Shown here: piece by piece, positions 17,960 through 36,398 of the stretch
How positions within the stretch are numbered: position 1 is the first letter of the stretch
How the letters are laid out: each line of letters begins with the position of its first letter
Assembly (NCBI GenBank): GCA_028066245.1
Contig: JALCBR010000001.1
Coordinates: 110,145 to 174,144, forward strand
Length of the DNA: 64,000 bases
Source: Pirellulales bacterium
GTDB taxonomy: Bacteria; Planctomycetota; Planctomycetia; Pirellulales; S012-138
Reading direction: 5' to 3'
The notes under the pieces: generated by a model
Told to the model about the DNA's origin: nothing
Seen by the model: the letters and a program-made list of their open reading frames with translations, nothing else
Database searches by the model: none
Translations under genes and position numbers: made by a program

Positions 17960-18715
17960 TTAGGAGTTACCTCCGGAAAGCACGCGGTTGATCAACGTTC
18001 CGGCGATGTGGTCTTGGTTTTGAATCATGTGAACGTTCGCTTCGAATGCGCGGCTGGCGGCGATCATTTCCATCATCCCTGAGACCGGGTTCATTCCTGA
18101 AGATTCCAGATATCCCTGGGCGGTCATCCGCTCCTCTGGTGGAGCTGGCTGAACGTCCGCCAGCGGCCGAAAGAGATTGGCGCCGACTTTGACCAGGTCA
18201 CCCAGCGAGGATGGCTTAACGATAGCGAGATCGATCACGTTGCCCGCTTGTTGAATCTGGCCGATGGACGAGAGTGTCCAAGGGGCATTCGGGTTGATCG
18301 AGATGGCACCACCTGAGGAATCGAGGACGGGTTCACCCCGTTCGGTTGTCAGTTGGCCGTCTGCGTTGAGATCGAAATTGCCGGCACGCGTCAGGAACTG
18401 TTCGCCGTTTCGTTCGATGACGAAAAACCCTTCCCCTTTGAGAGCAAAATCCAGATTCCTGCCGGTGCGGTTAAGCGAGCCTGGCGCATGGGTCGTGGGC
18501 GTTCCTACAAGGGAGACACCGCTTTCCAATTCGGGGAAGTTGTTTTCGCCCTGTGAAAAGCCGCGCTGAGCGACGCGCGTTTCCTTGGATTGGGCGAGGA
18601 TGACCTCTGGCTTAAAGCCAACCGTGTCGACGTTGGCGATGTTGTTGGACAACACCTCCATCCGCTTGGCTTGCACGGCGGCGCCTTGGGCCGCGACGTA
18701 AACTCCATTCGCCAT
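17960..18715 (-). CDS. flgF: flagellar proximal rod protein FlgF
   Basis: 'VLSNNIANVDTVGFKPE' near the N-terminus and 'GYLESSGMNPVSGMMEMIAASRAFEANVHMIQNQD' near the C-terminus. It lies immediately upstream of flgG. Confidence 0.85.
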   Translation of the reverse strand: MANGVYVAAQGAAVQAKRMEVLSNNIANVDTVGFKPEVILAQSKETRVAQRGFSQGENNFPELESGVSLVGTPTTHAPGSLNRTGRNLDFALKGEGFFVIERNGEQFLTRAGNFDLNADGQLTTERGEPVLDSSGGAISINPNAPWTLSSIGQIQQAGNVIDLAIVKPSSLGDLVKVGANLFRPLADVQPAPPEERMTAQGYLESSGMNPVSGMMEMIAASRAFEANVHMIQNQDHIAGTLINRVLSGGNS

Positions 18716-21155: not shown

Positions 21156-23453
21156 TCACTCCAACACAATCATCGGGCTAGAGCCATCGGCTTGATCAAT
21201 GACCCCAATCCGCGCGGCGAAGGTATAGTCGGATGAACGCAAGCGGGCGAGCACGTCATCCGCCTGATCTTGCGTGACGCCAGCGATTAACCCCCCCGAT
21301 GTCTGCGGGTCAAACAGCCAGTCGGGCGGATTGTTCCCGCGAACCCGTGAAGCGACGCGAGCGTTATCTTCAAACAAGGTGCTGCGAATTCCCAGGGCGG
21401 TCACGTCAGTAAAGCCTTCGTAGATCGGTACGTGATCGATCGCGATCTTTGCGGAGACTCCACTGGCGTCCAGCATCTCCAGCAGATGCCCCGCGAGACC
21501 AAAACCAGTGACGTCCGTGCAGGATACAACTCCAAACTCAGCCATAATCGCTGCTGCGTCCTTGTTTGCTTTGAGCATCTCTTCCAGCAGCGGCTCATAC
21601 CAGGCAGCTTTGCATTCGGATTGCATTAGTGCAGCCAATAACGCGCCGGTTCCCAATGGCTTGGTCAGAATCAACGTGTTACCAGGTCTCAGGCCAGACT
21701 TACGGAAAAGTCGGCCCCGTCTGGCGAAGCCAGTCATGGCGAATCCCATCGCCAACTCGGTTCCTTCTGTGGTGTGCCCGCCGGCAAGCGTGATCTCCAT
21801 TTCGCGGAGTGATTCGCTCGCGCCGGCCATCAACTCTTGGAGCTGTGCTTCTTGAATGGGTGTCCGCGCGAACGGGAGGGTGGCGATGGCCAGCGCCGTC
21901 TGTGGCTGAGCGTTCATGGCGTATAAATCGCTGGCCGCATTCAAGGCCGCCATCCGTCCAAACAGATAGGGATCATTGAGGAACGATTTGAAGTAATCAA
22001 CCGTTTGAACTTCAACCAGTTCATTATCGTCGGACTGTGACGACTGCTGCGCACCTGCTTGATCGGTGGTTGGCAGACGGAAGACGGCCGCGTCGTCGCC
22101 GTCTTTCAAACCAACGAGTACACGCGGGTCGTCTTTCGCTGTAAGGTCCTTGAGTACATTGGAGAGAACGTGAGCGGGCACCTTTGACCCGCAGCCACCG
22201 CAGCGCATGACATCTTCAGCGTTTTCTTCGTCCGTGTCGCCCATCTCAGGAAAGACCGTGAACTTCTGTACCCAACGTTGGTCAATCCAGTTCTTGAGCT
22301 TGCGGGCAGCTTTGCTTTTCCAGGCGAATGCTCCGTAGTTGAGTACCGCGCCGCCATCAGCTGTATTGAGCAAATAGAGGACGCGCTTTTGCGGGCGGAA
22401 ATCTCGCAACGGTTGATCGCGCAACCGGCGGCGAATGTTGTCATACAAGACTCGGCCTTCCCGCACGGCGTAGACACCGCTTTTGGCAAGCTGCGGATAG
22501 TCATCGAAACTCGCGCAATCACCCGTGCCAAAGACATCGCTTTCGGAAACTGACTGGAGCGTTTTGCGAATTCGCAAGAAACCATGCTCGGTGACGGACA
22601 GTCCCGCTTCGCGAATCAACTCCGCCGCAGAAGCCTGCGTCGCCCAGAGGACTTGATCGCAGCTGACGTTTTCACCAGTTTCCAATTGCAGCTCTGTTGG
22701 ATTGCCTCCGACGACACGGGCGCTGGTGCGGACGTTGATGGCGCGCGCTTGCAACTCCCTTGCGAAGTGGCGCGTCGTCCGATCCGGAAACGTGGGCAGC
22801 AATTGTTGATTGGCTTGGAGTAGGGTGATCCGGAAGCTACTGATGCCACTCATTCGTTTGGCGATAGCCAGTGCAAGTTCGCAACCGCTGGCGCCACCAC
22901 CAACAACAGCCAGATGAAACGGGCGGGGATTCGCTTGGAGTTCGGCTTCCAACGCGGAGAGCCGTTTAATGAGTTTGGCGAGTGGCCGCATCACAAACGC
23001 TGACTTGCCATCGATCAATCCCTCCGGGGCGGCCGGAATGGAGCCTAACCCCAACGAGAGGATGTCGTACTTGATCGGAGGGCGTTGCTCGAACACCACC
23101 TGCCGACGACCGGTTTCAATTTTGCAGACGGGCTCGGAGACTAGCCGGAGGCCAAAACCAGCAGCCATGCGTACCAGGTCAAAGGAAATCTGATCGGCTG
23201 TGAATTCTCGACCGATATGAGCCGGTACCATGGCCGAATACGGAATCTCATTGCCTTGGTTGACCAAAGTTACGCTGACGCCGGGAATCGGCCGCATGGC
23301 AAATCGCCTGGCGAAAACGAGATGCGCATTTCCTGCGCCGACCAGCACGACTGATTTGGCGATCGGTGCAGGAGACCCCAACTGCATGACAAGTTCCGTG
23401 GGTGTTGGTTTTGTTCCAAGGAGTACTGGCAACAGAATGTCAGTAGACTCCAT
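21156..23453 (-). CDS. selD: fusion protein: FAD/NAD(P)-dependent pyridine nucleotide-disulfide oxidoreductase domain plus selenide, water dikinase (SelD)
   Basis: N-terminal half carries 'SVVLVGAGNAH' and 'HLAVVGGGASGCELA' Rossmann motifs. C-terminal half carries the 'VMRCGGCGSKVPAHVL' Cys-type SelD P-loop region and AIR-synthase-like segments 'DAAVF...TVDYF..., ...ITLAGGHT'. The start is uncertain, at 23453, 23387 or 23678. Confidence 0.85.
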   Translation of the reverse strand: MESTDILLPVLLGTKPTPTELVMQLGSPAPIAKSVVLVGAGNAHLVFARRFAMRPIPGVSVTLVNQGNEIPYSAMVPAHIGREFTADQISFDLVRMAAGFGLRLVSEPVCKIETGRRQVVFEQRPPIKYDILSLGLGSIPAAPEGLIDGKSAFVMRPLAKLIKRLSALEAELQANPRPFHLAVVGGGASGCELALAIAKRMSGISSFRITLLQANQQLLPTFPDRTTRHFARELQARAINVRTSARVVGGNPTELQLETGENVSCDQVLWATQASAAELIREAGLSVTEHGFLRIRKTLQSVSESDVFGTGDCASFDDYPQLAKSGVYAVREGRVLYDNIRRRLRDQPLRDFRPQKRVLYLLNTADGGAVLNYGAFAWKSKAARKLKNWIDQRWVQKFTVFPEMGDTDEENAEDVMRCGGCGSKVPAHVLSNVLKDLTAKDDPRVLVGLKDGDDAAVFRLPTTDQAGAQQSSQSDDNELVEVQTVDYFKSFLNDPYLFGRMAALNAASDLYAMNAQPQTALAIATLPFARTPIQEAQLQELMAGASESLREMEITLAGGHTTEGTELAMGFAMTGFARRGRLFRKSGLRPGNTLILTKPLGTGALLAALMQSECKAAWYEPLLEEMLKANKDAAAIMAEFGVVSCTDVTGFGLAGHLLEMLDASGVSAKIAIDHVPIYEGFTDVTALGIRSTLFEDNARVASRVRGNNPPDWLFDPQTSGGLIAGVTQDQADDVLARLRSSDYTFAARIGVIDQADGSSPMIVLE

Positions 23454-23710
23454 TTTGGATAGCGCAGCGGTCCAGGGAAGACCCTTCCCACGGGATTCCG
23501 GGCCTGTAGGAAGAATCCCGAGTGATCCTGAAGATTCGCCTTGGCTGCTGAATTGGGTATGTTGGCAGGTTGTTGGAAAATGCTCTTGTCGTGTTTCAAT
23601 CCAACTTATTCTGAGAAATGAATCTCTCCGTGCCGAATCGCGTCCCATAGAATGTATGGGGGCCGCGCAGCTCATCAAACTTATTTAGGGACCTGTGGTC
23701 AAAGGCAGGA

Positions 23711-24682
23711 ATGACGCACAAGCATCGTAGCGGAATGACGCTGGTTGAACTCCTCGTGGTGATCTTCATCATGGGGTTATTGCTGGCATTGTTGATTCCC
23801 GCTGTGCAGTCTGCCCGAGAGGCGATGCGTCGAATTGAGTGTTCCAATCAACTTCACCAAATCATTTTGGCCATCCAGAGCCATGAAGATATCCACCATG
23901 CCATTCCGACCAACGGTTGGGGGTATCAATGGGTTGGCAATCCAGACCGTGGTTCTGGACCTCGGCAGCCCGGCGGTTGGGCCTATTGTATCTTGCCATA
24001 CGTAGAACATCAGAATCTGCGCACGCTAGGTCAGAACTTGCCGGAGCCGCGGCAAAAGGAAGCACTGGCGACGTTAATTCAAACGCCGGTTAAGCTGTTC
24101 AAGTGTCCGACCCGTGGACCTGTAGCCCTGTTTGAGAATGATCCACGGACGTCGCCGATCAACGCTGCATGGACGGAATTTGTCGCCCGCACGGACTACG
24201 CGATCAACGAAGGCGATGTGCACATTAAAACCAATGCCGGGCCGCGAACTTTGGCCGAAGGTGACCAGCCCCATTACGTCTGGCCTGACACGTCCATGGC
24301 CACCGGAGTTTCTTACGTCCGCAGTCGGGTGAGCTTTGGTTCTGTCCTGGATGGATTGAGCAACACCTATTTTGTCGGCGAGAAATATGTTTTCTCTGCT
24401 GACTACCTAACCATTGATGATCCAGGGTATGACCAAAGCATGTATACCGGCGCAGACCTAGACACCAACCGCGCTGCTGAGAACTTGCCGGCTTGGGATG
24501 GATTAGATATGAGTCACATGCCCAACAATGGGGCGCGGCTGTTCGGCAGCGCCCACCCTAACGCGTTGAATATGGCCTTTGGTGACGGGCATGTCGGCCG
24601 GCTCAACTACAACATCGATTTGCAAACCCATCGCAATCTTGGTAATCGCCACGACGGCCAATCGACGACATCGTCTTTCTGA
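23711..24682 (+). CDS. DUF1559 domain protein with a prepilin-type N-terminal cleavage/methylation segment
   Basis: N-terminus '[44 protein letters not shown]'. The C-terminal 'FGSAHPNALNMAFGDGHV' is an exact H-X9-DG motif. Confidence 0.88.
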   Translation: MTHKHRSGMTLVELLVVIFIMGLLLALLIPAVQSAREAMRRIECSNQLHQIILAIQSHEDIHHAIPTNGWGYQWVGNPDRGSGPRQPGGWAYCILPYVEHQNLRTLGQNLPEPRQKEALATLIQTPVKLFKCPTRGPVALFENDPRTSPINAAWTEFVARTDYAINEGDVHIKTNAGPRTLAEGDQPHYVWPDTSMATGVSYVRSRVSFGSVLDGLSNTYFVGEKYVFSADYLTIDDPGYDQSMYTGADLDTNRAAENLPAWDGLDMSHMPNNGARLFGSAHPNALNMAFGDGHVGRLNYNIDLQTHRNLGNRHDGQSTTSSF

Positions 24683-24733: not shown

Positions 24734-27700
24734 CTATTGAGATAGCGAGGTACCATTTGCAACGGCGGTTGCGCGGCGTTTTGTCCGCCAAACACCCCAA
24801 ATCACGCCGGCAATTGCGATCGCTATTGCCACAATCCACGCCCCCAGCAGCAGCGAACATCCGATAGCGATCGTCGGCAAGATAAGTGAACGGTGCTGCG
24901 CCGAGGGCAGCATTTGCGAATCTTTCCCGAATGCCCGACGCGGGATAAACAAGGTTGCTGTGGCTAGCAATCCGAGCGCAATCACACTGCGAGGCCACGA
25001 GGTACTTGGCGGCTCATCATTCGCAAGTTTGACCTGCAATTGGCTGCCACGGAAAAGATAGGCATATCGATCTCGAGGCCAAACTGTCGCTGCACTCGCG
25101 GCAGGCCAGAAGTTTTCCACGCTCACGGAGTTGGAATCGCCACTTTTGTATGTCGCGAGCTGAGTTGATGTTCCTTGACCACTGAGCACTCCGTCAGCGA
25201 CCTTTGGTGACTTGCTTAGTACTTCACGCGACAACAACTCCGCTAGCAAAGTCGATGGCGACTCTTGGCTGAGCCATTCCAAACGCAGTTGCTCGAAAAC
25301 ACGCTGCGCGACACGAATTTGGTTTAATCGTCGCGGTGGCTGTTGGTTCGTGAGGCCCGGAGCAATGCCATCTCCCAGCCAGAGAGTTTCCTCGATGGGA
25401 ATGTCCAGCGGTTCTGGAATCTGGCAGAGTGAGGACCCTGCATCGCCACCGTCAGGCTGTGAAGAACTAACCAGCCCCAGTCCAATCCGCTGTGGCTGCC
25501 AGGAAGACCAGAGCGTGACTTCGCAAATTCTATCAGAGAGCATTCTCGTTTGAGCAGGCAAACCGTTGATGTCCGCGGACGTCAAGCTTGACTTTGCTGG
25601 CAGCTGGAACTGCACGGATGTCGTTCCGCGCGGGTGCAAGTGGTAGGTTACTGCGATGCTTGGTCGGCCTGTTTCTACGACTTGTGCAACCACCAGCGGA
25701 AACTGCGGTGAGGTGCCCACCAACGAAGTCTTAAGTGAGAGCAGCGCTTTGACCTGTCTAATCTCGAAGGTCCTGTCCACGGATAGGCTAAACGTTTCGG
25801 GAGTTGCGGGATCGCGTTCGAGACCTTCGATGTCCCACTCAAGGATGGACCCACCAACTGCACGGGGAACGATAAGCACTCGCTCGACCATTTCCGCCGA
25901 ACGACCAAGTTCTGCAAGTACCGGAACTTGTTGCGGGGCCGATAGCCGGGAGGGCAATGTTAACCGCAACTGCCATTGGTACTGATCGTGTGTGATCGTG
26001 GGCTGCAGATGCCGCTCTGACCTCCGAAGTTGGAATCTTCGCAGGTCGCCGTCATGATTTGGATCGAACGTGACGTGCCAGCCTGGTACGGGAGATGGAT
26101 CCATGCGCCAATCACCGGGAATGTCTAGCAGGAAATCATCCGGAACGTACGTGCCCTCTTCTGCTAAGAGCGTAACCGTGGCGTGCCAATTCCCGTGTTC
26201 GCGGAACAATCGCGTTGTCAACCTTCCCCGCGACGCGGCTGTTGATTGAAGTGCAATGTTAGGGGAGGTACCGGTCTGCGCTTCAATGGGAAACACGCCA
26301 ATCAGCTGCGTGCCATCAGGAGGCGCCACATGCGGGTCGGCGATCGCAGCAGGCGTGCTTCCAACAGGCATGATCGCCTGAATATTTTCCCGACGAAAAA
26401 CCGTCAGTATGCATCCCCCTTCGTTAACGCTCGAGAATCTTAATAGCTTTGGACGGTAGAGCGCAGGGAACTCCGTCCATCCTTCCGATGCTTGAATCTC
26501 CAACCGCAACAATCCCGTCGGCACCCCTGAAGTCAAGACAACGAGCTTCCCTGACGTAGTCGACCAATGACGTATAACTTCGCGGCCAGCTTCGTCGCGC
26601 ACGGAGACATCCGTGATTTCGAGAGCCTCTGGTATTTCCACCTGCCAGAGGAAGCGTTGTTGGGCAGGAAGCGCCACGGACGTTTTGAAAACGTATTCGC
26701 ATCCACTACGACCAATCACCGCCTCAGCTTCTAGGTAGCTGTTGGCTTCTGTGGCGACCGGCTGAATCGCTATCTGCCAGCTTGAGGTCTCTGCAATCGG
26801 TCTGGCGACTAGTCGTGGCAATTCGACAGCCCCCCAATCGACCGCGAACGCTTCGGGAGAGATGTCAGCGAGCTGCCTTCTCTCCAATTCCGAGATTCGC
26901 CAGCGCTGATCAACGCCAACTCCCCAGAATTGGACTTGAGACGGCGAATTAGCGAGGTGAAGCCTTGGGAACCGCCATCGGCCTGTCGGTCTGCGGTCCC
27001 GGAAGGAAAACTCCAGGCTAACCTCCCTGCGGTCCAACATGGAGCTTGGTAATGGGATCGTCAGGTAGTCAGTAATGGACCCTTGGGTATTTATGTTGCC
27101 AGCAAGGTTGGCCGAAGTCACGCGGCCATCGACGGCGGTGCCTTCTAATCGCAACGTGGGAGGGAATCGCAAGACGATGCTGTCAGGATGGGAATCATTA
27201 AAGAACAGAATGCGAGCGGAAAGCCGGGCAGTGCCGCCGGAGAACCTGAGCCAACTCAAGATTTTCACAGGCTGTTGGGGTGAGAACGCTCGGTCCTGTG
27301 AACGCAGGGTAAGTTGCAGTGAGTTTGCTGGGCCCAACACCACGTGTGACATCCCAGCGTTGGCAAACTGGCGCACACGTACGAAATCACCTGTCATCTC
27401 TACTTGCCGACCGGCGATATCCTCATCCGGCTGTGCGATCTCGACGGAGGCCCCTGAGATGGCGGGCACTGTAAACCGCAATTGCCCTGGCCGGAGAAGT
27501 GCCGCGTCCGTCGATACCATCTCAAGATCGATCGTGTGCTTTCCAACTCCCTGGATTGTCAACGTTGCTTGAACGTCCTCCCACTCAATCACGGACTCCC
27601 GCCCAGCTGGGAAAACCAACGCTGTTTGCGGGATTTGTTGGTAATCACTTTGCCTGAGCGGAAGCTCCACACGCGCCTCGTCTTCAAAAGAATGGACACG

Positions 27701-30700
27701 CAACGTCAGCGAAAGCTCGACTGCCCGAGACGAGACCAGTCCGCCTTCGGTAGCGCGGACGCGATGTTCCGCGGCGGTCAGTAAGTAACCACGCGGTCGC
27801 ATGTTCGTCTCGTCTAGTCGGCGTTGAATCTCAGTGACCAGTTCTCGTGGCGCAAAGAGGTGAGTCCCATCTGGTTTGCCCTGGCCGTCCACGCGGACAA
27901 AAACGAGATAACGCTGCCCTTCTTCCTGTGAGGGAGAGACTCGCGGAGGTGGAAAAAGTCTCTCCTGGGACAAAGCAGTCTCGTCGTTTGTCGCCGTCGC
28001 GACGTTACTCCAAAGCACCACGCCCATGCCTAGCAGCAATGTGCCGAGCTTGAGGGTGCGCAACAATCTCCGCTGAGTCGCGTTGACCGTGCTGGGAGAA
28101 TGAATAGCAAGCACGGCGACGATGACGCCAACCCCGAACCCCAGCGGAAGTCCACTGACAAGCTGCGAATAGGAGCTCGGCGCCAACAGCGAACCCGCGG
28201 TCAGTGTGGCACAGATGGACAATGCCCAATACCGATGTCGGTGGATGATCGTCCACCCAATGATGCCTGCAATAACCAAGAGGAATTTGTTCAACGACGC
28301 TTGACGTTCGGCATGAGCAACCGAAACAACTTTCGTCGCACCATTCAGGAGATAGATTGCATCTCCGTCAAAGGTAGCTAGCGATTGCCGATCGTCGTCA
28401 TTGCGTGGCCATGGTGAGACTGGAGGTGCTGAGGACGAGTCTGGCCGAATCAACGTTGTCAGCCACTCACTGTCGCCAGAGGTCCCCGAGTCGAGCTCAA
28501 AGACAAGCCGATCATCGGAACGGATCCAATACAAACCGGAAGACTGTAGCGCATGCAAGCTCGTTATGGCCAGCGTATGATCATTGATAACCGCCAGGGC
28601 AAGCCCCAACTGCTCCATGGCGTGACGGATTGTTTCCGTTCCTTCCGCTCCGTGAATCGACTTCGCCATAAGCAGGTCATCAAGGGCATTCTCAGACTGG
28701 CTAATCCGATCAAGATCAATGAGTAGCTGATAGCCGTTTGCTTGCCATTCGTCGGCCAGGTGTTGAAGCGCACGGTTGAAATGTGGTGAGGAACCGCTGT
28801 TAGTGGTGCCTGTGCGGGCGATCTCGGCAGAAACAGCCGAGCGCGCGTTGGCTAAGAATCGTTTGGCCAGCGCGGTGCCACTTTCCGATAGCGCCTGGCG
28901 GCGGGTCGTCGCTGCTGGAAACTCACTCCAAGACGATGCTGGACCTAGTAGGCGGTTCGCAATTAAGCTCACAGTCGAACTCACGATTTGATGCCGACTG
29001 TCCGCATCGGTCCGGACCGTGCCCCAAGGCAACTGGAGCTTGGCTATTCGCTCAAAAACGATCGCTGAAAACTCAGGCCAAGGAACGGTGAACTCTCCGC
29101 TCAGACCAATCGCAGTGTGAGAAACGCGATACTGCAATTGAATCGTCTTGTAGGCAGGCTCGACAGGAATCGACACGCGCAGCAACTGGCCATCGTCGGT
29201 CCATCGAAGCGGTTGATCGTCTGCGCGGACCTCGATTAATTTCGCGTTAGGCGGGAGCGTGAACGCCAATTCCTCCGCGTGACGGCTTTGGACATGGCAT
29301 TCAACCCTACACAGACTTTCTCCGTTGGAGTGCAACGTCCAATGTAGTGTTTCATGCCAAATAATCGGTTCCGCGGGCGAGACGGCGCTCTCCGTGTGAC
29401 TGGCAGCGTTCTCACCATCCTCTTGTTTTCGTCGGATCATCAATGGAGACGACCGCTGATTGCTGGCAAGATCGATCGGCGAGAACGCATATCGAACGAC
29501 ACGCCTTGAGATGTCTGTGCTGAAGTCTGTTGGCAGCGGCCAGATTGGCTTAATCGAAGCCAACGACGATTCAACGTCATCTGGATGTTGAGCCAGGCTC
29601 GCGTAGACCTCGGCAGGAAACGCAACGACAACTTCTCCAGATGACACAGTTGATCCCAAGGGCGACGCCAGGCTGACGACAACCGGCCATCTTGTCGCAG
29701 GTGACGTTCGCGTGGCGATCAAATGTCCGTCCGCGTTGTCGAACGCATGGATCCGCCAAACCTCTACATCATCGGCCAGGCTGCGCTCGGCCAATTCATT
29801 TGTCGAGAGACGAGATGCTTCAACTGGCTCATCTTGTCCGGTCGCCCAAGTCCAAACTCCATCAGTCCGTGATTCCGAGACGTAGAATAGCGTCTCGCGC
29901 TGCATAGCATTAGGCAGACCCGTTACATGGAATGTCTCGCGTAATTCCGCTTCCGTCAGTTCCGCATGAACTTGAATAGAAACTGCACCTTGATTTTGCG
30001 CATCGCCCCAGATCAGGCGTCCGTGCGTTGGCGGGAACTTCAATCGATAGATTGTGTCACCGGGCTCAACTGTCAGGGGCAGATTGTCGTCCGAATGACT
30101 GGAAACTGCGGACGCAGATTCCTCAGCGCCGAGAAGATTGAGCTCGCTCGTACCTCCTGAGCTCGCCAGAGCCATCACATTCTCCCGTAGGCGCGCTTCA
30201 AGTGGAGACGCAGGAATGGCCTCAGCCAAGCTCAAGTCAGATCGCGCACCGACATCTCGCCGTGCCAAGATCGAGATTGTGAATTCACTGTGCCCAACGA
30301 TCGGATGCGGAAGCTGCACGTCAATCAACGCATCGGGCATGCCATCTGTGACCGGCCGCTCCCAAGCAACGAGCACTTCGTTTTGCGGACGACCATCGGC
30401 AGAAAACTGAACGTTCTCAATCTTCCATTCATCCGCTATGGCGAGTTGAATTGCCGAACGGGATCCGAAATCTTGCAAGAAGCGTATCGAGCAATTGGCC
30501 CGGAGCTGTGCCTCCTCAAGAAGCAATCTTGTGGCCATCTCGGCATGTAGTCCACCTCTGCGACGCTCGACTGCTAAGCGCAGTTCCGCCGCAGGTGACA
30601 TCAATCGGGCTTCTAGGTCATCGAGAGCTGTATAGGAGCTAATCTCGGCATTCGCGAACTGGAGGTCGGCCAAGCGCAACGGCGACAGCACTCGCACCCG

Positions 30701-31972
30701 TACCGTGCCTGTTTGCCAAAAGACTTCAGGAAGGATCAATCGTGGAAGCACGACTTGGTCGCGCTCAGGGAGGTGGTGTGATGCGACCGCGCTCAGAGCG
30801 ACCGTTCGACCGGCCCAGGATGGCAGGATCTCAAGCTCAATCCTTTGTTGTTCAGACGTTGGCCGCTGTTGGGGCCGTAGCTCGGGCGAGTCCGGAACGG
30901 GTTGCGGCATGGAACCGTTAAGCTTGCGCGGCGATATTTCGCGTCCATCCGCAGCTAATGATTGCAAGTTTAATTCCCGCGGCATTTGTATCTGCAGCGC
31001 CTTGGCAGCATTCGCAGGAAAACGAATCTGCCAGTGTGTTGTGACGAGCAACTCGCCCCGGTCCGCACGGTAGGTCGTTTTTTCTTGTACTGTTGGGAGT
31101 GTGTCCGGCGCTGAGTTTGTTTCGTCACTCGTGCGGGTGAGAATGAGTGACGTCCGACCGCCAGCGGCCAGAACAATCTCCCATTGTCGCGTCGCCGGTA
31201 CGTCCGCTTCGCCGACCTCTGAATTGAGCAAGTAGGTTGCTCCCTGGTGGTTCGGCAAGCGCGGTTCCCAGTCGAACGGAAGTTCCAGTCGCAAAATTCG
31301 GCGCGGCGCAGCGGGTAGTTCTAACGTAAAACGGTGCTCTCGTGGAAACCGCGCGTCTGCTCGCTGTGCTGCCGTCAACGCAACGGCGCCGCTTCGATCA
31401 GCGAGAAGCGCCAATTTACCATTTGGTTGGTTTCCCAGAATGGCCGGCTCTGTTTCGTTGGAATCTTCGCCAATCCACCGCGCTTGGCTACTGCCAGGCT
31501 CTGTCTGAGAGGAAATGAGTGCAGCGGAAAACTGCCCCAACGGCAGTAAAGCAGGCTGTTCCCTTTCTGGTCTGTGAGAAACGTTGAGGCGAAGTTTTCC
31601 CGATAATGTGGCGGCCTGAGGATCAAAACTTGCGTTCCACGTCCAGGACTTCAATGACGCCGGCGGCAAGCGTTTGGTCCGTAAGTCGATTAGCCAGTTG
31701 TTCCATTGTGCTCGCGAGATTTCCAGCATGTCAGCCGCCTCCGCAGGCGGCCATTGTTCGACTGGCACAGTTCGATAGACCACATCAAGCGGAGTAGCCT
31801 CTTGGATTCCAGTGAGAGTAATCCGCTCTTGGTTTGAGTTTCCCAAACCAACCTGTCGCGAATGAGCCGTGGCGGCGATCAATGCACATATAATGCATCC
31901 TGCGAGCGTTGGAAGCACAACCGCCATGACGGCGCGTGTGCGAAGCCGAGTTGGATGAAGCCTGCGCATCAC
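24734..31972 (-). CDS. giant multi-pass membrane protein (2412 aa), no recognisable domain
   Basis: The ORF is uninterrupted, with GTG at 31970-31972 followed by ATG. There is an N-terminal TM segment, a cluster of hydrophobic helices mid-protein (about nt 28005-28295, 'FLLVIAGIIGWTII...LGTLLLGMGVVLW') and C-terminal TM helices ('VIALGLLATATLF', 'ILPTIAIGCSLLLGAWIVAIAIAIAGVIWGVW'). The start lies 2 nt after the upstream gene's stop. Confidence 0.8.
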   Translation of the reverse strand: MMRRLHPTRLRTRAVMAVVLPTLAGCIICALIAATAHSRQVGLGNSNQERITLTGIQEATPLDVVYRTVPVEQWPPAEAADMLEISRAQWNNWLIDLRTKRLPPASLKSWTWNASFDPQAATLSGKLRLNVSHRPEREQPALLPLGQFSAALISSQTEPGSSQARWIGEDSNETEPAILGNQPNGKLALLADRSGAVALTAAQRADARFPREHRFTLELPAAPRRILRLELPFDWEPRLPNHQGATYLLNSEVGEADVPATRQWEIVLAAGGRTSLILTRTSDETNSAPDTLPTVQEKTTYRADRGELLVTTHWQIRFPANAAKALQIQMPRELNLQSLAADGREISPRKLNGSMPQPVPDSPELRPQQRPTSEQQRIELEILPSWAGRTVALSAVASHHLPERDQVVLPRLILPEVFWQTGTVRVRVLSPLRLADLQFANAEISSYTALDDLEARLMSPAAELRLAVERRRGGLHAEMATRLLLEEAQLRANCSIRFLQDFGSRSAIQLAIADEWKIENVQFSADGRPQNEVLVAWERPVTDGMPDALIDVQLPHPIVGHSEFTISILARRDVGARSDLSLAEAIPASPLEARLRENVMALASSGGTSELNLLGAEESASAVSSHSDDNLPLTVEPGDTIYRLKFPPTHGRLIWGDAQNQGAVSIQVHAELTEAELRETFHVTGLPNAMQRETLFYVSESRTDGVWTWATGQDEPVEASRLSTNELAERSLADDVEVWRIHAFDNADGHLIATRTSPATRWPVVVSLASPLGSTVSSGEVVVAFPAEVYASLAQHPDDVESSLASIKPIWPLPTDFSTDISRRVVRYAFSPIDLASNQRSSPLMIRRKQEDGENAASHTESAVSPAEPIIWHETLHWTLHSNGESLCRVECHVQSRHAEELAFTLPPNAKLIEVRADDQPLRWTDDGQLLRVSIPVEPAYKTIQLQYRVSHTAIGLSGEFTVPWPEFSAIVFERIAKLQLPWGTVRTDADSRHQIVSSTVSLIANRLLGPASSWSEFPAATTRRQALSESGTALAKRFLANARSAVSAEIARTGTTNSGSSPHFNRALQHLADEWQANGYQLLIDLDRISQSENALDDLLMAKSIHGAEGTETIRHAMEQLGLALAVINDHTLAITSLHALQSSGLYWIRSDDRLVFELDSGTSGDSEWLTTLIRPDSSSAPPVSPWPRNDDDRQSLATFDGDAIYLLNGATKVVSVAHAERQASLNKFLLVIAGIIGWTIIHRHRYWALSICATLTAGSLLAPSSYSQLVSGLPLGFGVGVIVAVLAIHSPSTVNATQRRLLRTLKLGTLLLGMGVVLWSNVATATNDETALSQERLFPPPRVSPSQEEGQRYLVFVRVDGQGKPDGTHLFAPRELVTEIQRRLDETNMRPRGYLLTAAEHRVRATEGGLVSSRAVELSLTLRVHSFEDEARVELPLRQSDYQQIPQTALVFPAGRESVIEWEDVQATLTIQGVGKHTIDLEMVSTDAALLRPGQLRFTVPAISGASVEIAQPDEDIAGRQVEMTGDFVRVRQFANAGMSHVVLGPANSLQLTLRSQDRAFSPQQPVKILSWLRFSGGTARLSARILFFNDSHPDSIVLRFPPTLRLEGTAVDGRVTSANLAGNINTQGSITDYLTIPLPSSMLDRREVSLEFSFRDRRPTGRWRFPRLHLANSPSQVQFWGVGVDQRWRISELERRQLADISPEAFAVDWGAVELPRLVARPIAETSSWQIAIQPVATEANSYLEAEAVIGRSGCEYVFKTSVALPAQQRFLWQVEIPEALEITDVSVRDEAGREVIRHWSTTSGKLVVLTSGVPTGLLRLEIQASEGWTEFPALYRPKLLRFSSVNEGGCILTVFRRENIQAIMPVGSTPAAIADPHVAPPDGTQLIGVFPIEAQTGTSPNIALQSTAASRGRLTTRLFREHGNWHATVTLLAEEGTYVPDDFLLDIPGDWRMDPSPVPGWHVTFDPNHDGDLRRFQLRRSERHLQPTITHDQYQWQLRLTLPSRLSAPQQVPVLAELGRSAEMVERVLIVPRAVGGSILEWDIEGLERDPATPETFSLSVDRTFEIRQVKALLSLKTSLVGTSPQFPLVVAQVVETGRPSIAVTYHLHPRGTTSVQFQLPAKSSLTSADINGLPAQTRMLSDRICEVTLWSSWQPQRIGLGLVSSSQPDGGDAGSSLCQIPEPLDIPIEETLWLGDGIAPGLTNQQPPRRLNQIRVAQRVFEQLRLEWLSQESPSTLLAELLSREVLSKSPKVADGVLSGQGTSTQLATYKSGDSNSVSVENFWPAASAATVWPRDRYAYLFRGSQLQVKLANDEPPSTSWPRSVIALGLLATATLFIPRRAFGKDSQMLPSAQHRSLILPTIAIGCSLLLGAWIVAIAIAIAGVIWGVWRTKRRATAVANGTSLSQ

Positions 31973-31974
31973 GA

Positions 31975-34900
31975 TTAACTTGTTGGCTTGGGCACCGCAT
32001 GGACTTCCGTTGCGGCACCGGACTCACGATTTCTCAGCTTGGAATGTGCCGACCGAGAGTCATCTCGTTCTGCGGCCAGACGTGCCGGCGTCTTCTCCTG
32101 GTCGACCAATCGACGAATGGCCGCGGCAGCCAGAAAAAGCAAGAGCCCCAACGCAGCAGCTTGAAGAAAGAGTGGAGCAGTCGAGGGAAATGACCAGGCT
32201 AGTCCTACGATGGCAATCAGAACGACCAGCACAAAACTCGGCGTGCGTATTCGTGCGTAGCGGAGAAAAGCGATCCCCAGCGCAAGTGTTGCCAGAGATG
32301 AGAGCCCCACAATCATGCTCCGGCGACCGCTGATCAACCGCAATGACGCTGGTGGGCCAACTCCACAAAAGAGATATCGGTTGACTCCGGAAGGAATCGC
32401 CGGAGAAGAAATTGCTTGTACGCGTGCCTCCAAACTATTCAAACTTCGCGCGGGTTTGCGCTTCCAACCCCCTGACCAATTCCACGTGTTGTCACTTTGG
32501 TACTCGTCACCCGTCCAGATGAGATGCTGCGCCGCGGGCATTGTCAGGTGCCAATATGTGTTGAGGATTTGAACTTCTTCCGTAAACACCGGCGGTGGCA
32601 AATCAATCGCTCCCGTATGGTCGCCTGGAATCCGGTAAACCAACTCAATCGGGATTGTCGCCTTGCCGCTGGATTCACTGGGTGAAGTCTCTGATGAGCG
32701 AACGGTAATCTGTCGATCAGAACCCACTGCGTAGTTCTGCAGCATGGCTTTGTTTTGACGGAGGACATATTGCGAGGCAGACCCTTCCGGAAGCGTGATC
32801 GTGAATTCTTCTGAGGCCGAGTCTGAGTGCCAGACAAACATGACGCGATCTTCGCGAAACTCGGGACCTAGCCACGATTGGATGACCAAGTCGCGAATGA
32901 CGGCTGTTGCGGTCGAAGGTTTCGTGTTGTCAGAGACAGTCAATTCAATAAACGACTCTGACGAACTCGTTTCATAGGCCGGAGACGAAATGCCATCGAC
33001 TACAGTTTCCGACTTGACCCAAGGTGACGCCGTATCGGACAACTTCACGATCAGCGAGTTCGCGACATCTAATGTGACGGAGTGGCCAGCAAAACCTGCA
33101 TTGGTGGGAACAAGCAAGTGGATGAGTTCGCGTAGCTTGCGTTGTGGCTGGTTGGTTCGGTCGATGGAGTGGGTAATGCCAATGCGACGTTCATCGCTTG
33201 TGCTAGCTCTCAACTCCGCCAATGCTTGCGCTGAGATCGAAACCACCACAGCCGTGTTCCGGCCAAGCTGGGGATCATCTCGCGATGAGCGAGCGACGCC
33301 GATCGGCTTGCCATCAAGAGTAAACTCTAAGCTATTCGCTGCACGGTTTTCCCACAGCGGTGCTGGAACCAACAGTCGGAGTGCTGACAACTCTGACACG
33401 GGAGCGAGCGTGTGAAGTTCCTGTCGAACTTGAATGCCGTCAGTGTTGAACGTGACTGATACTTCCGATCGCAATGAATAGCTTGGGAATGGCCGGATCG
33501 TCCCGACGAACTGTGCGTCCGGGCCCTGCACGTTGTATCGCAACCCTGGGCCCGTGAATCCTTCGATGTTGGTTAGTCTTTGGATCTCGTGAGATGTCGG
33601 CAAGCACTCCCAATCCTGCGGTACGATAATCTCAAGCGCATCGCCACGAGTGTTGGTGTGCAGCAGCGTCGGTAGGGAAAAATTCAACGTTGCCGGCTCA
33701 GCTAATCGCGCGCTGGCTATGATCTGCATCTGCACCCGTCCCGTTAAGGGGCGAGAAAGAGGTAGGTACCAAAGACCAGTTTCATCCACGTTTCCTTGCA
33801 GCAGCGTTTCGTCATCGTCGATACGAATCTCTTCCACGATCCAATCGTGCAAACTCAGTTCCAATGCCCGCAACTGGCCACTTGAGATGTTGAGATCAAA
33901 CGTGCCGTTCAATCGCAAGTGAGTTGGATCAACGGACACCGAGTGCAAGATTTGGCCTGTCACGATCGTACGCGGACGAAACGCGCGCAGCCTAAGAGGC
34001 ATTGACTGAGCCCAGTATCGAAATGCGACGCCGATCTCGTCCGTATGGGGCAAAGTTGCCCCAGCATTGGCGTCAATGGACTCATATTCGACTTGCTCTA
34101 CTCCGCTTGGGATTATGCGGGGCATGACGAGCCATCCATCAGGGCAAGAGAACTTCCAGGTTCCCGTATGCCTGGCTGTTTGCTCTGGTACGAGAGGTTG
34201 GATTTCAAGATCACTGAAATCCAGGACCCGACTTTCCAGAACGAGCCTAGCAGGTTCATTCTCCTTCAATTCGATTTCAACCACCGATCCATTCTTGCCG
34301 AGGCCGGTTTTTGAGTCGTTTCTGCGCGAAGGAGTCGGAGAGATCACGTCAAACCCGCGTGGAATACGAACGCGCAGGGCGTCACCTGCAGAAACTGGAC
34401 CTTCGACAGTGAATCGAGCTTCGTGACGCACGAGCTGCTGTACGGGATCAAGCAACGTTGAAATGTCGCCTTCAATCAAGGGCCACTCTGCGGCAGCGGT
34501 GTCAGATGGCTGCCACCAGAGAAGTGAGACTTGACCATCCATGCTCTCGACGCGGATTGTGCTGCCATCGGCTGTGTATTCCACTTCGGGCACGCTACCG
34601 CTGGAGGTTACGGCACTTGCATTCTCGTAGGGTACACGCAGTCTGATTTCGCTGGAAAATGCTTCCGGAAGTTGAAACTTGATCTCGCTCCGATCCTTTG
34701 CTCGCCCAATCTCCGTCGTCACCTGTAGCAGCAATGTGTGTTCTTTGATGTTTGCCAACGATGCAGACGGATCCTCAATGAGCCAGAGAAAACCTCCCTG
34801 TTCGGAATCGAAATCAAGCACTTGCCCCACCTGCGGAGAGGAAAACTCCGGGTCTGTTGAGAGCAGGCAATTGACAAACCGCAGCGGAATGGCTTGCACA

Positions 34901-35202
34901 TCCGGCGAGAACAGCTTGACGTTGAATTTGAGTTCCAAACGAGCCTGGTCGGAGTCGATTGCTTCGACATCGCCGATCACTTCCATGGAAGAAAGCGTGT
35001 AACCCTTCTCGACCCGTGCTACGGATGCATCCTGTCCCTGTGATTGATTGGCTCGCGCACTGGCCGCGGCAAACACTTCACCTTGGAACGGTGTCAGTTC
35101 ACCAGTCCATGCATAGACGCACAGCGCCGCGCAACAGACTCGCACGATGACTGATGCTATTACCGAGCGGGGCATTTGGCCGTGTGCTCGATCCGGTCGC
35201 AT
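31975..35202 (-). CDS. large membrane protein (1075 aa), no recognisable domain; paralogous module to the downstream giant gene
   Basis: ATG at 35200-35202, with an alternative ATG at 35175. There is an N-terminal TM ('VIASVIVRVCCAALCVYAW'), a roughly 950-aa non-hydrophobic region and C-terminal TM helices ('MIVGLSSLATLALGIAFL', 'FVLVVLIAIVGLAW', 'LFLQAAALGLLLFLAAAAI'). The TAA stop at 31975-31977 abuts the next start. Confidence 0.8.
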   Translation of the reverse strand: MRPDRAHGQMPRSVIASVIVRVCCAALCVYAWTGELTPFQGEVFAAASARANQSQGQDASVARVEKGYTLSSMEVIGDVEAIDSDQARLELKFNVKLFSPDVQAIPLRFVNCLLSTDPEFSSPQVGQVLDFDSEQGGFLWLIEDPSASLANIKEHTLLLQVTTEIGRAKDRSEIKFQLPEAFSSEIRLRVPYENASAVTSSGSVPEVEYTADGSTIRVESMDGQVSLLWWQPSDTAAAEWPLIEGDISTLLDPVQQLVRHEARFTVEGPVSAGDALRVRIPRGFDVISPTPSRRNDSKTGLGKNGSVVEIELKENEPARLVLESRVLDFSDLEIQPLVPEQTARHTGTWKFSCPDGWLVMPRIIPSGVEQVEYESIDANAGATLPHTDEIGVAFRYWAQSMPLRLRAFRPRTIVTGQILHSVSVDPTHLRLNGTFDLNISSGQLRALELSLHDWIVEEIRIDDDETLLQGNVDETGLWYLPLSRPLTGRVQMQIIASARLAEPATLNFSLPTLLHTNTRGDALEIIVPQDWECLPTSHEIQRLTNIEGFTGPGLRYNVQGPDAQFVGTIRPFPSYSLRSEVSVTFNTDGIQVRQELHTLAPVSELSALRLLVPAPLWENRAANSLEFTLDGKPIGVARSSRDDPQLGRNTAVVVSISAQALAELRASTSDERRIGITHSIDRTNQPQRKLRELIHLLVPTNAGFAGHSVTLDVANSLIVKLSDTASPWVKSETVVDGISSPAYETSSSESFIELTVSDNTKPSTATAVIRDLVIQSWLGPEFREDRVMFVWHSDSASEEFTITLPEGSASQYVLRQNKAMLQNYAVGSDRQITVRSSETSPSESSGKATIPIELVYRIPGDHTGAIDLPPPVFTEEVQILNTYWHLTMPAAQHLIWTGDEYQSDNTWNWSGGWKRKPARSLNSLEARVQAISSPAIPSGVNRYLFCGVGPPASLRLISGRRSMIVGLSSLATLALGIAFLRYARIRTPSFVLVVLIAIVGLAWSFPSTAPLFLQAAALGLLLFLAAAAIRRLVDQEKTPARLAAERDDSRSAHSKLRNRESGAATEVHAVPKPTS

Positions 35203-35579: not shown

Positions 35580-36398
35580 TTACGCTTCACTTGTCGTCGT
35601 TTTGGCCGGTCCTTGTGGAAATGCCAAAATCGTGTGCAATTGGTCGGCCAATTCAGGTGTCGAGGCAGCAATAAACCTCGGTTGATCGAGGTCCAGGTCC
35701 GCTCCCGGCATTGGACGAATGACTCCGCCGGCTTCCTGGACCAGTAGCCATCCGGCGGCAATATCCCATGCATGATTGTTATTGGCCCAATATCCATCAA
35801 ACCGTCCAGCGGCAACGTACGCAAGATTCATGGCGGCGGATCCTGTCCGCCGTAAGGATTGTGCTGCCACGAGGATGTCAACAAAGTTATCGATCTCGAA
35901 CGATTCTCGTGTCACGCCTGCGGCGAAACTGGCCACCACCATCGCTTGGCTGATCTCCGTGATGCCACTGGCGGAGATTGGCTCGCCATTCAGGTGTGCA
36001 CCTTGGCCTTGAGCAGCAGAGTACATCTCCCGCAAGTTGGGATCGTAAATTGCTCCGGCGAGAAGCTTGCCTTCGAATTCCACTGCGACAGAGACGCAAT
36101 ACCCCGGCGCGCCATGTGCGTAGTTGACGGTCCCGTCCAAGGGATCAACAATCCAGCGAAAACGCGAGTCTTCTCCCGAGAGATCAACGCCCTCTTCGCC
36201 CAGGAACCCATGCGTTGGATGTCGGGAGGCAATCAAGTTCTGAGTCGCCTGTTGGGCGGCGAGATCGGCATCGGTCACTAAATCCGCAGGCGCTTTCTCT
36301 CGCACCTGGAACTTGCCTCGCCAGTCCAGCAAGGTTTCTCCTGCCGCCAAAGCGGCTTGCCGTGACGTCTCCAACAGCGTTTCAGTTAATGATTCCAT
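35580..36398 (-). CDS. suhB: inositol monophosphatase family protein (SuhB-like)
   Basis: 'FLGEEG', 'WIVDPLDGTVNYAHG' and 'WDIAAG' are the IMPase signature motifs. Confidence 0.88.
   Translation of the reverse strand: MESLTETLLETSRQAALAAGETLLDWRGKFQVREKAPADLVTDADLAAQQATQNLIASRHPTHGFLGEEGVDLSGEDSRFRWIVDPLDGTVNYAHGAPGYCVSVAVEFEGKLLAGAIYDPNLREMYSAAQGQGAHLNGEPISASGITEISQAMVVASFAAGVTRESFEIDNFVDILVAAQSLRRTGSAAMNLAYVAAGRFDGYWANNNHAWDIAAGWLLVQEAGGVIRPMPGADLDLDQPRFIAASTPELADQLHTILAFPQGPAKTTTSEA

Follow-up and report, generated by a model that had tools for sequence, protein, structure and literature searches.

Two paralogous membrane-anchored modules, very probably fused in one protein, adjoin a third in a Pirellulales genome

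THE LOCUS AND ITS TWO GENES

The window analysed here is a stretch of 64,000 nucleotides (nt) from a Pirellulales bacterium (GenBank assembly GCA_028066245.1, contig JALCBR010000001.1, positions 110,145 to 174,144). On its minus strand lie two adjacent genes for large membrane proteins: gene S, encoding 1075 amino acids (aa), and a gene encoding 2412 aa, here the big gene, whose N-terminal and C-terminal modules we call N and C. An original prediction, made from the letters of the sequence, held that the 2412-aa protein is a tandem fusion of two copies of the module that forms the 1075-aa protein. Profile comparisons bear this out, with significant similarity that is collinear and in register; S, N and C are very probably paralogues of one ancestral module, N and C being fused.

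The listing of open reading frames (ORFs) confirms both genes, on the minus strand and at the positions first proposed. S ends with TAA at 31977-31975, and 2 nt further on comes a GTG (31972) and then an ATG (31969), so that the big gene starts at one or the other, 2-5 nt past the S stop. The S protein is 100% identical to 'MAG: hypothetical protein MPJ50_00590 [Pirellulales bacterium]'. Promoter and terminator scans gave results at chance level.

The transmembrane (TM) layout of both proteins was read from Kyte-Doolittle hydropathy. In S, one helix lies near the N-terminus (13-31) and three more lie within 962-1030. In the big protein, residues 14-32 form the N-terminal helix, and clusters follow in mid-protein (1226-1328) and at the C-terminus (~2325-2405); coordinate mapping places the mid cluster at nt 27989-28297, against the 28005-28295 first proposed. 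The features, all on the minus strand (-), are as follows, with the basis of each in brackets.

31975..35202 (-): gene S, single module with ATG start; in order, predicted signal anchor, periplasmic beta-sandwich array, hairpin and three TM helices (ORF listing and translation).
35104..35166 (-): S N-terminal signal anchor or signal peptide, aa 13-33, with a basic n-region ahead of it (hydropathy).
32323..35100 (-): S ectodomain, aa 35-960, with internal repeats of ~175 aa (HHalign against N and against C, self-alignment).
32329..32382 (-): S pre-membrane segment NRYLFCG...SLRLIS, the third motif (tail HHalign to N AIYLLNG...VVSVAH).
32113..32319 (-): S C-terminal cluster of three TM helices with an R-x-P cytoplasmic loop (hydropathy, N-tail homology).
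24734..31972 (-): big gene, predicted fusion of modules N and C (ORF listing and translation).
31865..31933 (-): N-module signal anchor, aa 14-36 (hydropathy).
29030..31777 (-): N-module conserved core, aa ~66-981, the part collinear with C and S; a small alpha/beta start, then a large beta-sandwich array (HHalign, AlphaFold2 model).
28454..28966 (-): N-specific alpha/beta insertion, aa ~1003-1173, missing from S; C has a shorter helical segment in its place (helices and strands at model residues 964-1134; beyond the stretch that HHalign aligns collinearly).
28310..28360 (-): N pre-membrane segment AIYLLNG...VVSVAH (tail alignment to the S segment).
28100..28297 (-): three TM helices closing module N, aa 1226-1291 (hydropathy, S-tail homology).
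28049..28099 (-): basic cytoplasmic linker SPSTVNATQRRLLRTLK, the putative fusion junction (break point in split relatives L005 and L006).
27989..28048 (-): TM-d, the fourth mid-cluster helix, aa 1309-1328, ending ATA/TNDE (the equivalent in L005 is the N-terminus of a separate C gene).
24995..27988 (-): C-module ectodomain, aa 1329-2326; alpha/beta start, beta-sandwich array, helical segment (HHalign, model).
25025..25069 (-): C pre-membrane beta-hairpin RYAYLFRGSQLQVKL (model strands 1007-1012 and 1016-1021).
24758..25000 (-): C-terminal TM cluster of module C, three predicted helices (model helices 1030-1046, 1064-1079 and 1084-1110).

The hydrophobic segment at the N-terminus of the big protein contains a lipobox-like LAGC (aa 23-26, 31894-31905). 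A lipoprotein reading of it was rejected, a lipobox being found in just 14 of 123 relatives.

PARALOGY OF THE THREE MODULES

The prediction had drawn on three motifs said to recur in each unit. All nine of its motif strings occur at the relative positions proposed: motif 1 at S 87-109, N 123-147 and C 1417-1441; motif 2 at S 175-191, N 215-232 and C 1499-1515; and motif 3 at S 941-947, N 1205-1211 and C 2303-2309. Motifs 1 and 2 are aligned in all three pairings of the modules, whereas the correspondence at motif 3 is significant for N and S alone.

Raw similarity between the single sequences is barely distinguishable from chance. BLASTP among S, N and C gave one in-register match, N 143-526 with S 105-464 (E=0.024), and nothing for N with C or for C with S. 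The question of paralogy therefore needed profiles built from relatives. Already with thin profiles of six sequences each, in-register scores were 52-76, compared with 14-24 for column-shuffled and 25-27 for reversed control profiles. HHalign was then run on deep profiles, made from 144 N, 144 C and 35 S sequences. N and C align with a probability of 99.9% (E=2.3e-32) over 851 columns, 18-931 against 3-892; N and S with 99.6% (E=2.2e-24) over 825 columns; and C and S with 99.5% (E=1.5e-22) over 794 columns, all three collinearly. The outcome that would have told against the prediction, a lack of significant similarity between profiles, was thus found in none of the pairings. With the window sequences as HHalign master the E-values are 3e-22 (N-C), 5e-19 (N-S) and 5.5e-17 (C-S). 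HMMER agrees: the N profile matches 142 of 144 C ectodomains and 33 of 35 S proteins, the C profile matches 34 of the 35 S proteins, and the S profile matches 110 of 123 big proteins with significant domains in both halves. N and C are, by their mutual profile score, each other's closest relatives, and since this pairing scores highest S was probably the first to diverge.

Each module also has an internal repeat with a shift of ~175-190 aa, significant in self-alignment with HHalign (E=1e-3 to 3e-6; in S, 214-661 against 387-837 with E=3e-6). This repeat, together with inter-module alignments that are significant off register as well (E=1e-10 to 1e-5), raises the alternative that S, N and C share merely a repeated beta-sandwich domain, from which their arrays were built independently with no duplication of whole modules. 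We regard this as very improbable. The in-register alignments span ~800 columns and score two to three times any off-register one (307, 227 and 209 on the diagonal; 109, 122 and 83 for the best off-diagonal alignments), they begin in the non-repeat alpha/beta segment directly past each signal anchor, and the motifs align one-to-one. A pre-membrane segment and three-helix tail stand at the same place in every module, with significant homology between those of N and S. Duplication of a whole module is the reading we prefer and, because in-register scores exceed off-register ones 2-3-fold, the likely order of events was amplification of the repeat first and duplication of the module after it.

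EXTENT OF THE FAMILY

Relatives were collected in several ways. A word-indexed protein search gave only 1-4 relatives per query, also when the query was an alignment, among them two distant relatives of the big protein (P0003 and P0004, 23-24% identity) on whose contigs the gene order is an inositol-monophosphatase-family gene, a ~1100-aa gene and a ~2400-aa gene. A genome scan added three further Pirellulales loci, and a metagenome scan with four typical big proteins 62 more. An exhaustive HMMER search was made with a three-sequence profile of the N ectodomain; its matches, which are representatives of 50%-identity clusters, number 2512 at E<=1e-3 and 1185 at E<=1e-30. The best 150 representatives are mostly 2200-2550 aa long, with P0002 as second-best match. 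Matches bearing a taxon name all come from Pirellulales or other Planctomycetota; the majority of all matches are metagenome sequences with no such name.

S lies directly upstream of the big gene in 34 of the 34 loci with enough upstream sequence, so all three modules occur together universally in this set, and in 32 of the 34 the S stop overlaps the start of the big gene by 4 nt (ATGA or GTGA). Overlap and adjacency together indicate that S is translationally coupled to the fusion protein.

We describe the S + N-C family as an S protein of ~1100 aa followed by an N-C fusion of ~2300-2500 aa, with three collinear modules and a mid TM cluster of three helices plus one. The window pair shows a match to the N profile, all three collinear alignments, the 3+1 cluster and the adjacency of S and N-C, which places it in this planctomycete family as a divergent member. 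The best-conserved motifs of the family, WTVWLPPGY and RLFGPLGR, precede the N insertion and are degenerate in the window (IAKLQLPWG and RLLGPA).

Searches of Pfam-A and NCBIfam with the window proteins returned sub-threshold noise from TM regions only (DUF7268 at 14.8 bits with a cut-off of 27, DUF5693 at 11.7 with a cut-off of 29), and typical family members matched no Pfam or NCBIfam entry. A sequence search of the PDB with both family profiles found nothing meaningful, and a literature search found nothing on the family.

THE FUSION JUNCTION

The prediction further claimed that the units end alike just before their TM helices. To compare the ends by themselves, the last ~250 residues of each module, its tail, were aligned separately with HHalign. 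The claim holds for N and S, whose tails align with a probability of 92% (E=5e-7; reversed-control score 22): AIYLLNG stands opposite NRYLFCG, and the three helices match helix for helix, R-x-P loop included. It does not extend to C, whose likeness to the other two (an R-W-P loop and a Pro turn) is visual only. Counts of hydrophobic peaks were made across relatives. Three are present in the S tail of 33 of 34 S orthologues, and four in the mid cluster of 104 among 144 full-length relatives; in the C tail, 92 of the 144 have three and 49 have two.

The mid cluster, which had been taken for the fossil junction of the two modules, is built as that idea demands: three helices like those of the S tail, the basic linker and a fourth helix resembling a signal anchor. 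TM-d fits a former signal anchor of module C, and the whole cluster would fit three helices of the N-terminal module plus the C signal anchor, as fusion of two such genes predicts. Two relatives are split in the linker itself. The charged residues follow the positive-inside rule, as read from the sequence; from this and from hydropathy, the four mid-cluster helices should keep both ectodomains periplasmic, the second one because the number of helices is even.

In many relatives TM-d retains a c-region like that of a signal peptide, small-x-small followed by acidic or polar residues: ATA/TNDE in the window, and VRGA/EDN, TAFA/QTV and AVHA/APP among relatives. For this reason the fusion protein may possibly be cut by signal peptidase.

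SPLIT RELATIVES, FUSION AND FISSION

A search among relatives for separately encoded modules, which had been put forward as a check, gave a positive result. One locus (L005) has S, N and C as three genes: S of 1105 aa, N alone of 1371 aa, ending just past its three helices, and C alone of 1184 aa, opening with a signal-peptide-like segment. The N and C genes there are read in different frames and share 17 nt. A second locus (L006) has N alone, of 1338 aa; the ATG that follows overlaps its stop, near a contig end. Both breaks fall between helices three and four. In L005 the signal peptide of the separate C gene has a hydrophobic core (LLPAACCLLPAACC...) that is encoded by a tandem DNA repeat of the CTGCCTGCTGCC type (8735-8830). 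A third candidate for a stand-alone N gene (P0132) was ruled out, being cut by the end of its contig.

Each split form is closest to a fused protein (51% and 46% identity) and less close to the other split form (44%), which makes independent secondary fissions the best reading of the splits, with sequencing errors in single contigs as a possibility. The N-C fusion is old, near-universal in the family, and predates the sampled diversity.

Since N and C are separate genes in these two relatives, and since the window derives from a metagenome-assembled genome, the 2412-aa ORF might itself be an artefact of assembly or a frameshift joining two separate genes. We give this almost no credence: the same unbroken fusion recurs in over 120 relatives (2200-2560 aa) that were assembled independently, an identical protein is called on a second record (P0002), and both split forms have fused proteins as their nearest relatives.

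A different history would start from a three-module polyprotein, from which S split off, or reach the two-gene state by fission, N and C never having been separately fused. A 4-nt overlap between S and N-C is the expected trace of a fission, and fissions at the N/C linker are known in the family. We nevertheless think such a history improbable, because no three-module protein was found in the best 150 representatives (the longest is 2764 aa) or in 68 loci, and because each module has a signal anchor of its own, as once-separate genes would have. Fusion of two originally separate genes remains our preferred account of the big gene.

PREDICTED STRUCTURE

AlphaFold2 models were made separately for the C module (mean predicted local distance difference test, pLDDT, 72.7; predicted template modelling score, pTM, 0.43) and the N ectodomain (pLDDT 74.4, pTM 0.42). 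In both, a short alpha/beta start leads into ~850 residues of beta-strands. The C model is all-beta over 60-910, followed by helices at 924-999, a beta-hairpin at 1007-1021 and three TM helices. The N model is all-beta over 66-941 and has its extra alpha/beta insertion at 964-1134; its pre-membrane region (model residues 1151-1185) is of low confidence, with pLDDT <50. A comparison of secondary structure also went in favour of the prediction: at HHalign-aligned positions DSSP assignments of the two models agree at 69%, with a strand Jaccard index of 0.61, whereas shifted registers give 42-53% and 0.33-0.42. Secondary structure of N and C is thus concordant in the proposed register.

From its N-terminus on, the module can accordingly be described as a signal anchor, a small alpha/beta region, some five beta-sandwich repeats of large size (175-190 aa), the pre-membrane segment and three TM helices. 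In the C model the pre-membrane segment is predicted to be a beta-hairpin.

Searched against the PDB with Foldseek, the two models retrieved identical classes of fold: legs of integrin alpha, ribophorin I/Ost1 and PIGT, and further the N-terminal domains of M1 aminopeptidases and LTA4H, mastigoneme proteins and alpha-2-macroglobulin.

ASSEMBLY AND POSSIBLE FUNCTION

The explanation that we consider best, and likely as a whole, combines paralogous modules, a fusion junction, translational coupling and a hetero-oligomeric scaffold. Fusion and coupling would deliver the three diverged modules at 1:1:1. S, N and C might then assemble in the cytoplasmic membrane as a hetero-oligomeric, pseudo-threefold complex of 3 x 3 helices, with three beta-sandwich 'legs' projecting into the periplasm, and the complex might act as a structural scaffold or stalk and not as an enzyme. 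To the hetero-oligomeric scaffold taken by itself we would give slightly less than an even chance. A pseudo-trimeric hetero-oligomer, the last proposal of the original prediction, can reasonably be inferred from gene order, translational coupling and the retention of three paralogues.

No conserved catalytic motif was found among 123 relatives, where HExxH occurs in 5 and the thioester motif CxEQ in 7. The non-enzymatic reading is based on the rarity of these motifs, the lack of matches in the Pfam, NCBIfam and PDB sequence searches, and the nearest folds, which are scaffold legs.

Several points weigh against parts of this explanation. The window proteins are only 22-24% identical to every relative, and some HMMER matches between window sequences and profiles are weak (C profile against window N, E=2.4). 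The C tail has no significant similarity to the N or S tails in the tail comparison, which makes a symmetric 3 x 3 helix bundle a conjecture. The topology of the big protein comes from hydropathy and the positive-inside rule alone. With a pTM of ~0.42 in both models, the arrangement of domains is not fixed by them, and the likeness in fold is generic, the Foldseek TM-scores being very low (0.1-0.3). That S, N and C associate physically is a supposition drawn from gene order, coupling and the retention of all three.

The modules may instead be true paralogues that act independently, for example as adhesins, sensors or spacers, their adjacency being a relic of tandem duplication and no hetero-oligomer being formed. 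Tandem paralogues often remain adjacent, the C tail has diverged from those of N and S, and there is no evidence of interaction between the modules. This alternative deserves weight, yet we judge it unlikely: the order S then N-C holds in 34 of 34 loci and the overlap in 32 of 34 across lineages only 20-50% identical, and module-specific features (the N insertion, the C helical segment) are kept with no module lost. Retention of distinct modules argues for, though it does not prove, non-redundant and co-required parts.

A bolder version, which we think quite unlikely, sees in the pair a planctomycete-specific pseudo-threefold complex of the inner membrane in which N-C may be cut at TM-d, and in which the beta-sandwich legs, if extended, could span or organise the unusually wide planctomycete periplasm. 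Were TM-d cleaved, the N-C fusion would be a bacterial 'polyprotein' device for exact 1:1 delivery of subunits. If the pair is a periplasmic scaffold, it would offer a tangible molecular entry point to the architecture of the planctomycete envelope. This is a large family whose named members are all planctomycetes and which curated libraries lack; with the module definitions, profiles and boundaries obtained here it could be annotated.

NEIGHBOURING GENES

Upstream of S, across a 377-nt gap, lies one further gene with conserved position.

35580..36398 (-): inositol-monophosphatase-family gene (Pfam Inositol_P, E=4e-63).

It falls below all NCBIfam equivalog cut-offs (SuhB, HisN, CysQ). A homologous ORF is found upstream of S in 29 of 33 loci; this is conserved synteny only, with no functional link indicated. 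A divergent upstream gene kept in 21 relatives was considered as a homologue of the M14-like gene of the window and is not homologous to it.

Downstream of the big gene, 7-8 of 20 relatives have a gene like rimI (ribosomal S18 acetyltransferase) and one like plsC (acylglycerol-phosphate acyltransferase), at L010 17591-18975 and equivalent positions; the window lacks them. In the window, a gene for a DUF1559 protein with an N-terminal methylation motif (23711-24682, plus strand) and the big gene are convergent, their 3' ends facing each other. Further along are an 840-aa ORF with a pyridine-nucleotide-disulphide oxidoreductase domain and AIRS and AIRS_C domains (21156-23678, minus strand), apparently a fusion of a flavoprotein with a domain of selenophosphate-synthetase type, and a flagellar rod gene of FlgF/G type (17960-18715, minus strand). 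Genes of the FlgF/G and DUF1559 types are typical of planctomycete genomes. The setting of S and N-C is one of housekeeping genes, vertically inherited; it is not a mobile or defence island and holds no enzymatic partner.

COMPARISON WITH KNOWN SYSTEMS

Integrin alpha legs. The thigh, calf-1 and calf-2 domains of integrin alpha with their C-terminal TM helix are the top Foldseek match of both models (E=1e-7 to 1e-10). Like S, N and C they string together large beta-sandwich domains and end with a membrane anchor, and they serve as non-catalytic stalks of a hetero-oligomeric membrane protein, the role that by analogy we propose here. An integrin alpha chain is recognised by an FG-GAP beta-propeller head, Integrin_alpha2 leg domains and a single TM helix followed by GFFKR. 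The window proteins have no Pfam integrin match and no GFFKR motif. Unlike integrin alpha they lack the FG-GAP head, have three TM helices per module, and are bacterial and periplasmic; the likeness in fold stops at the beta-sandwich legs, and the TM-score is ~0.1 at 8-11% identity.

Ribophorin I/Ost1 and PIGT. These subunits of oligosaccharyltransferase and of GPI transamidase match with E=1e-9 to 1e-6 and target-normalised TM-scores of 0.2-0.3 over ~430-480 columns. They too combine tandem beta-sandwich domains, here luminal, with a C-terminal TM helix, and are scaffold subunits of membrane complexes. Unlike them, the present modules have much longer arrays, no match to any Pfam model and no catalytic partner gene nearby; Ribophorin I/Ost1 goes with a catalytic subunit of the STT3 type, and the conserved neighbours here include no glycosyltransferase.

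Alpha-2-macroglobulin and others. Bacterial alpha-2-macroglobulins also carry long periplasmic beta-sandwich arrays on the inner membrane and are a weak Foldseek match (4u4j, E=1e-6, prob 0.47). The window proteins have no CxEQ thioester and no Pfam match to them, and the motif is as rare among relatives as given above. The lipobox is not conserved here, and the repeat unit is ~175-190 aa; an MG domain has roughly 100 aa. M1 aminopeptidases and LTA4H were rejected: the HExxH-E zinc site is missing, the big protein holding one chance HETLH, and the Foldseek alignment covers only ~220-250 columns at a root mean square deviation of 5-14 A. A BatD-type protein of aerotolerance operons was rejected as well: its gene would belong to an operon with MoxR, DUF58 and VWA genes, and here there is no Pfam match and no MoxR or VWA neighbour.

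Pseudo-symmetric membrane proteins. Such proteins can arise by duplication and fusion of the subunit of a homo-oligomer, a known route to pseudo-symmetry. The N-C protein resembles them in its head-to-tail paralogous units, in an extra helix that would restore topology and in a stoichiometry set by fusion. It differs in the size of its units, ~1000 aa and mostly periplasmic, and in that one paralogue is still a separate gene. It is an unusually readable case, with one paralogue free and two fused, the fossil junction intact, and rare natural fissions at that very place.

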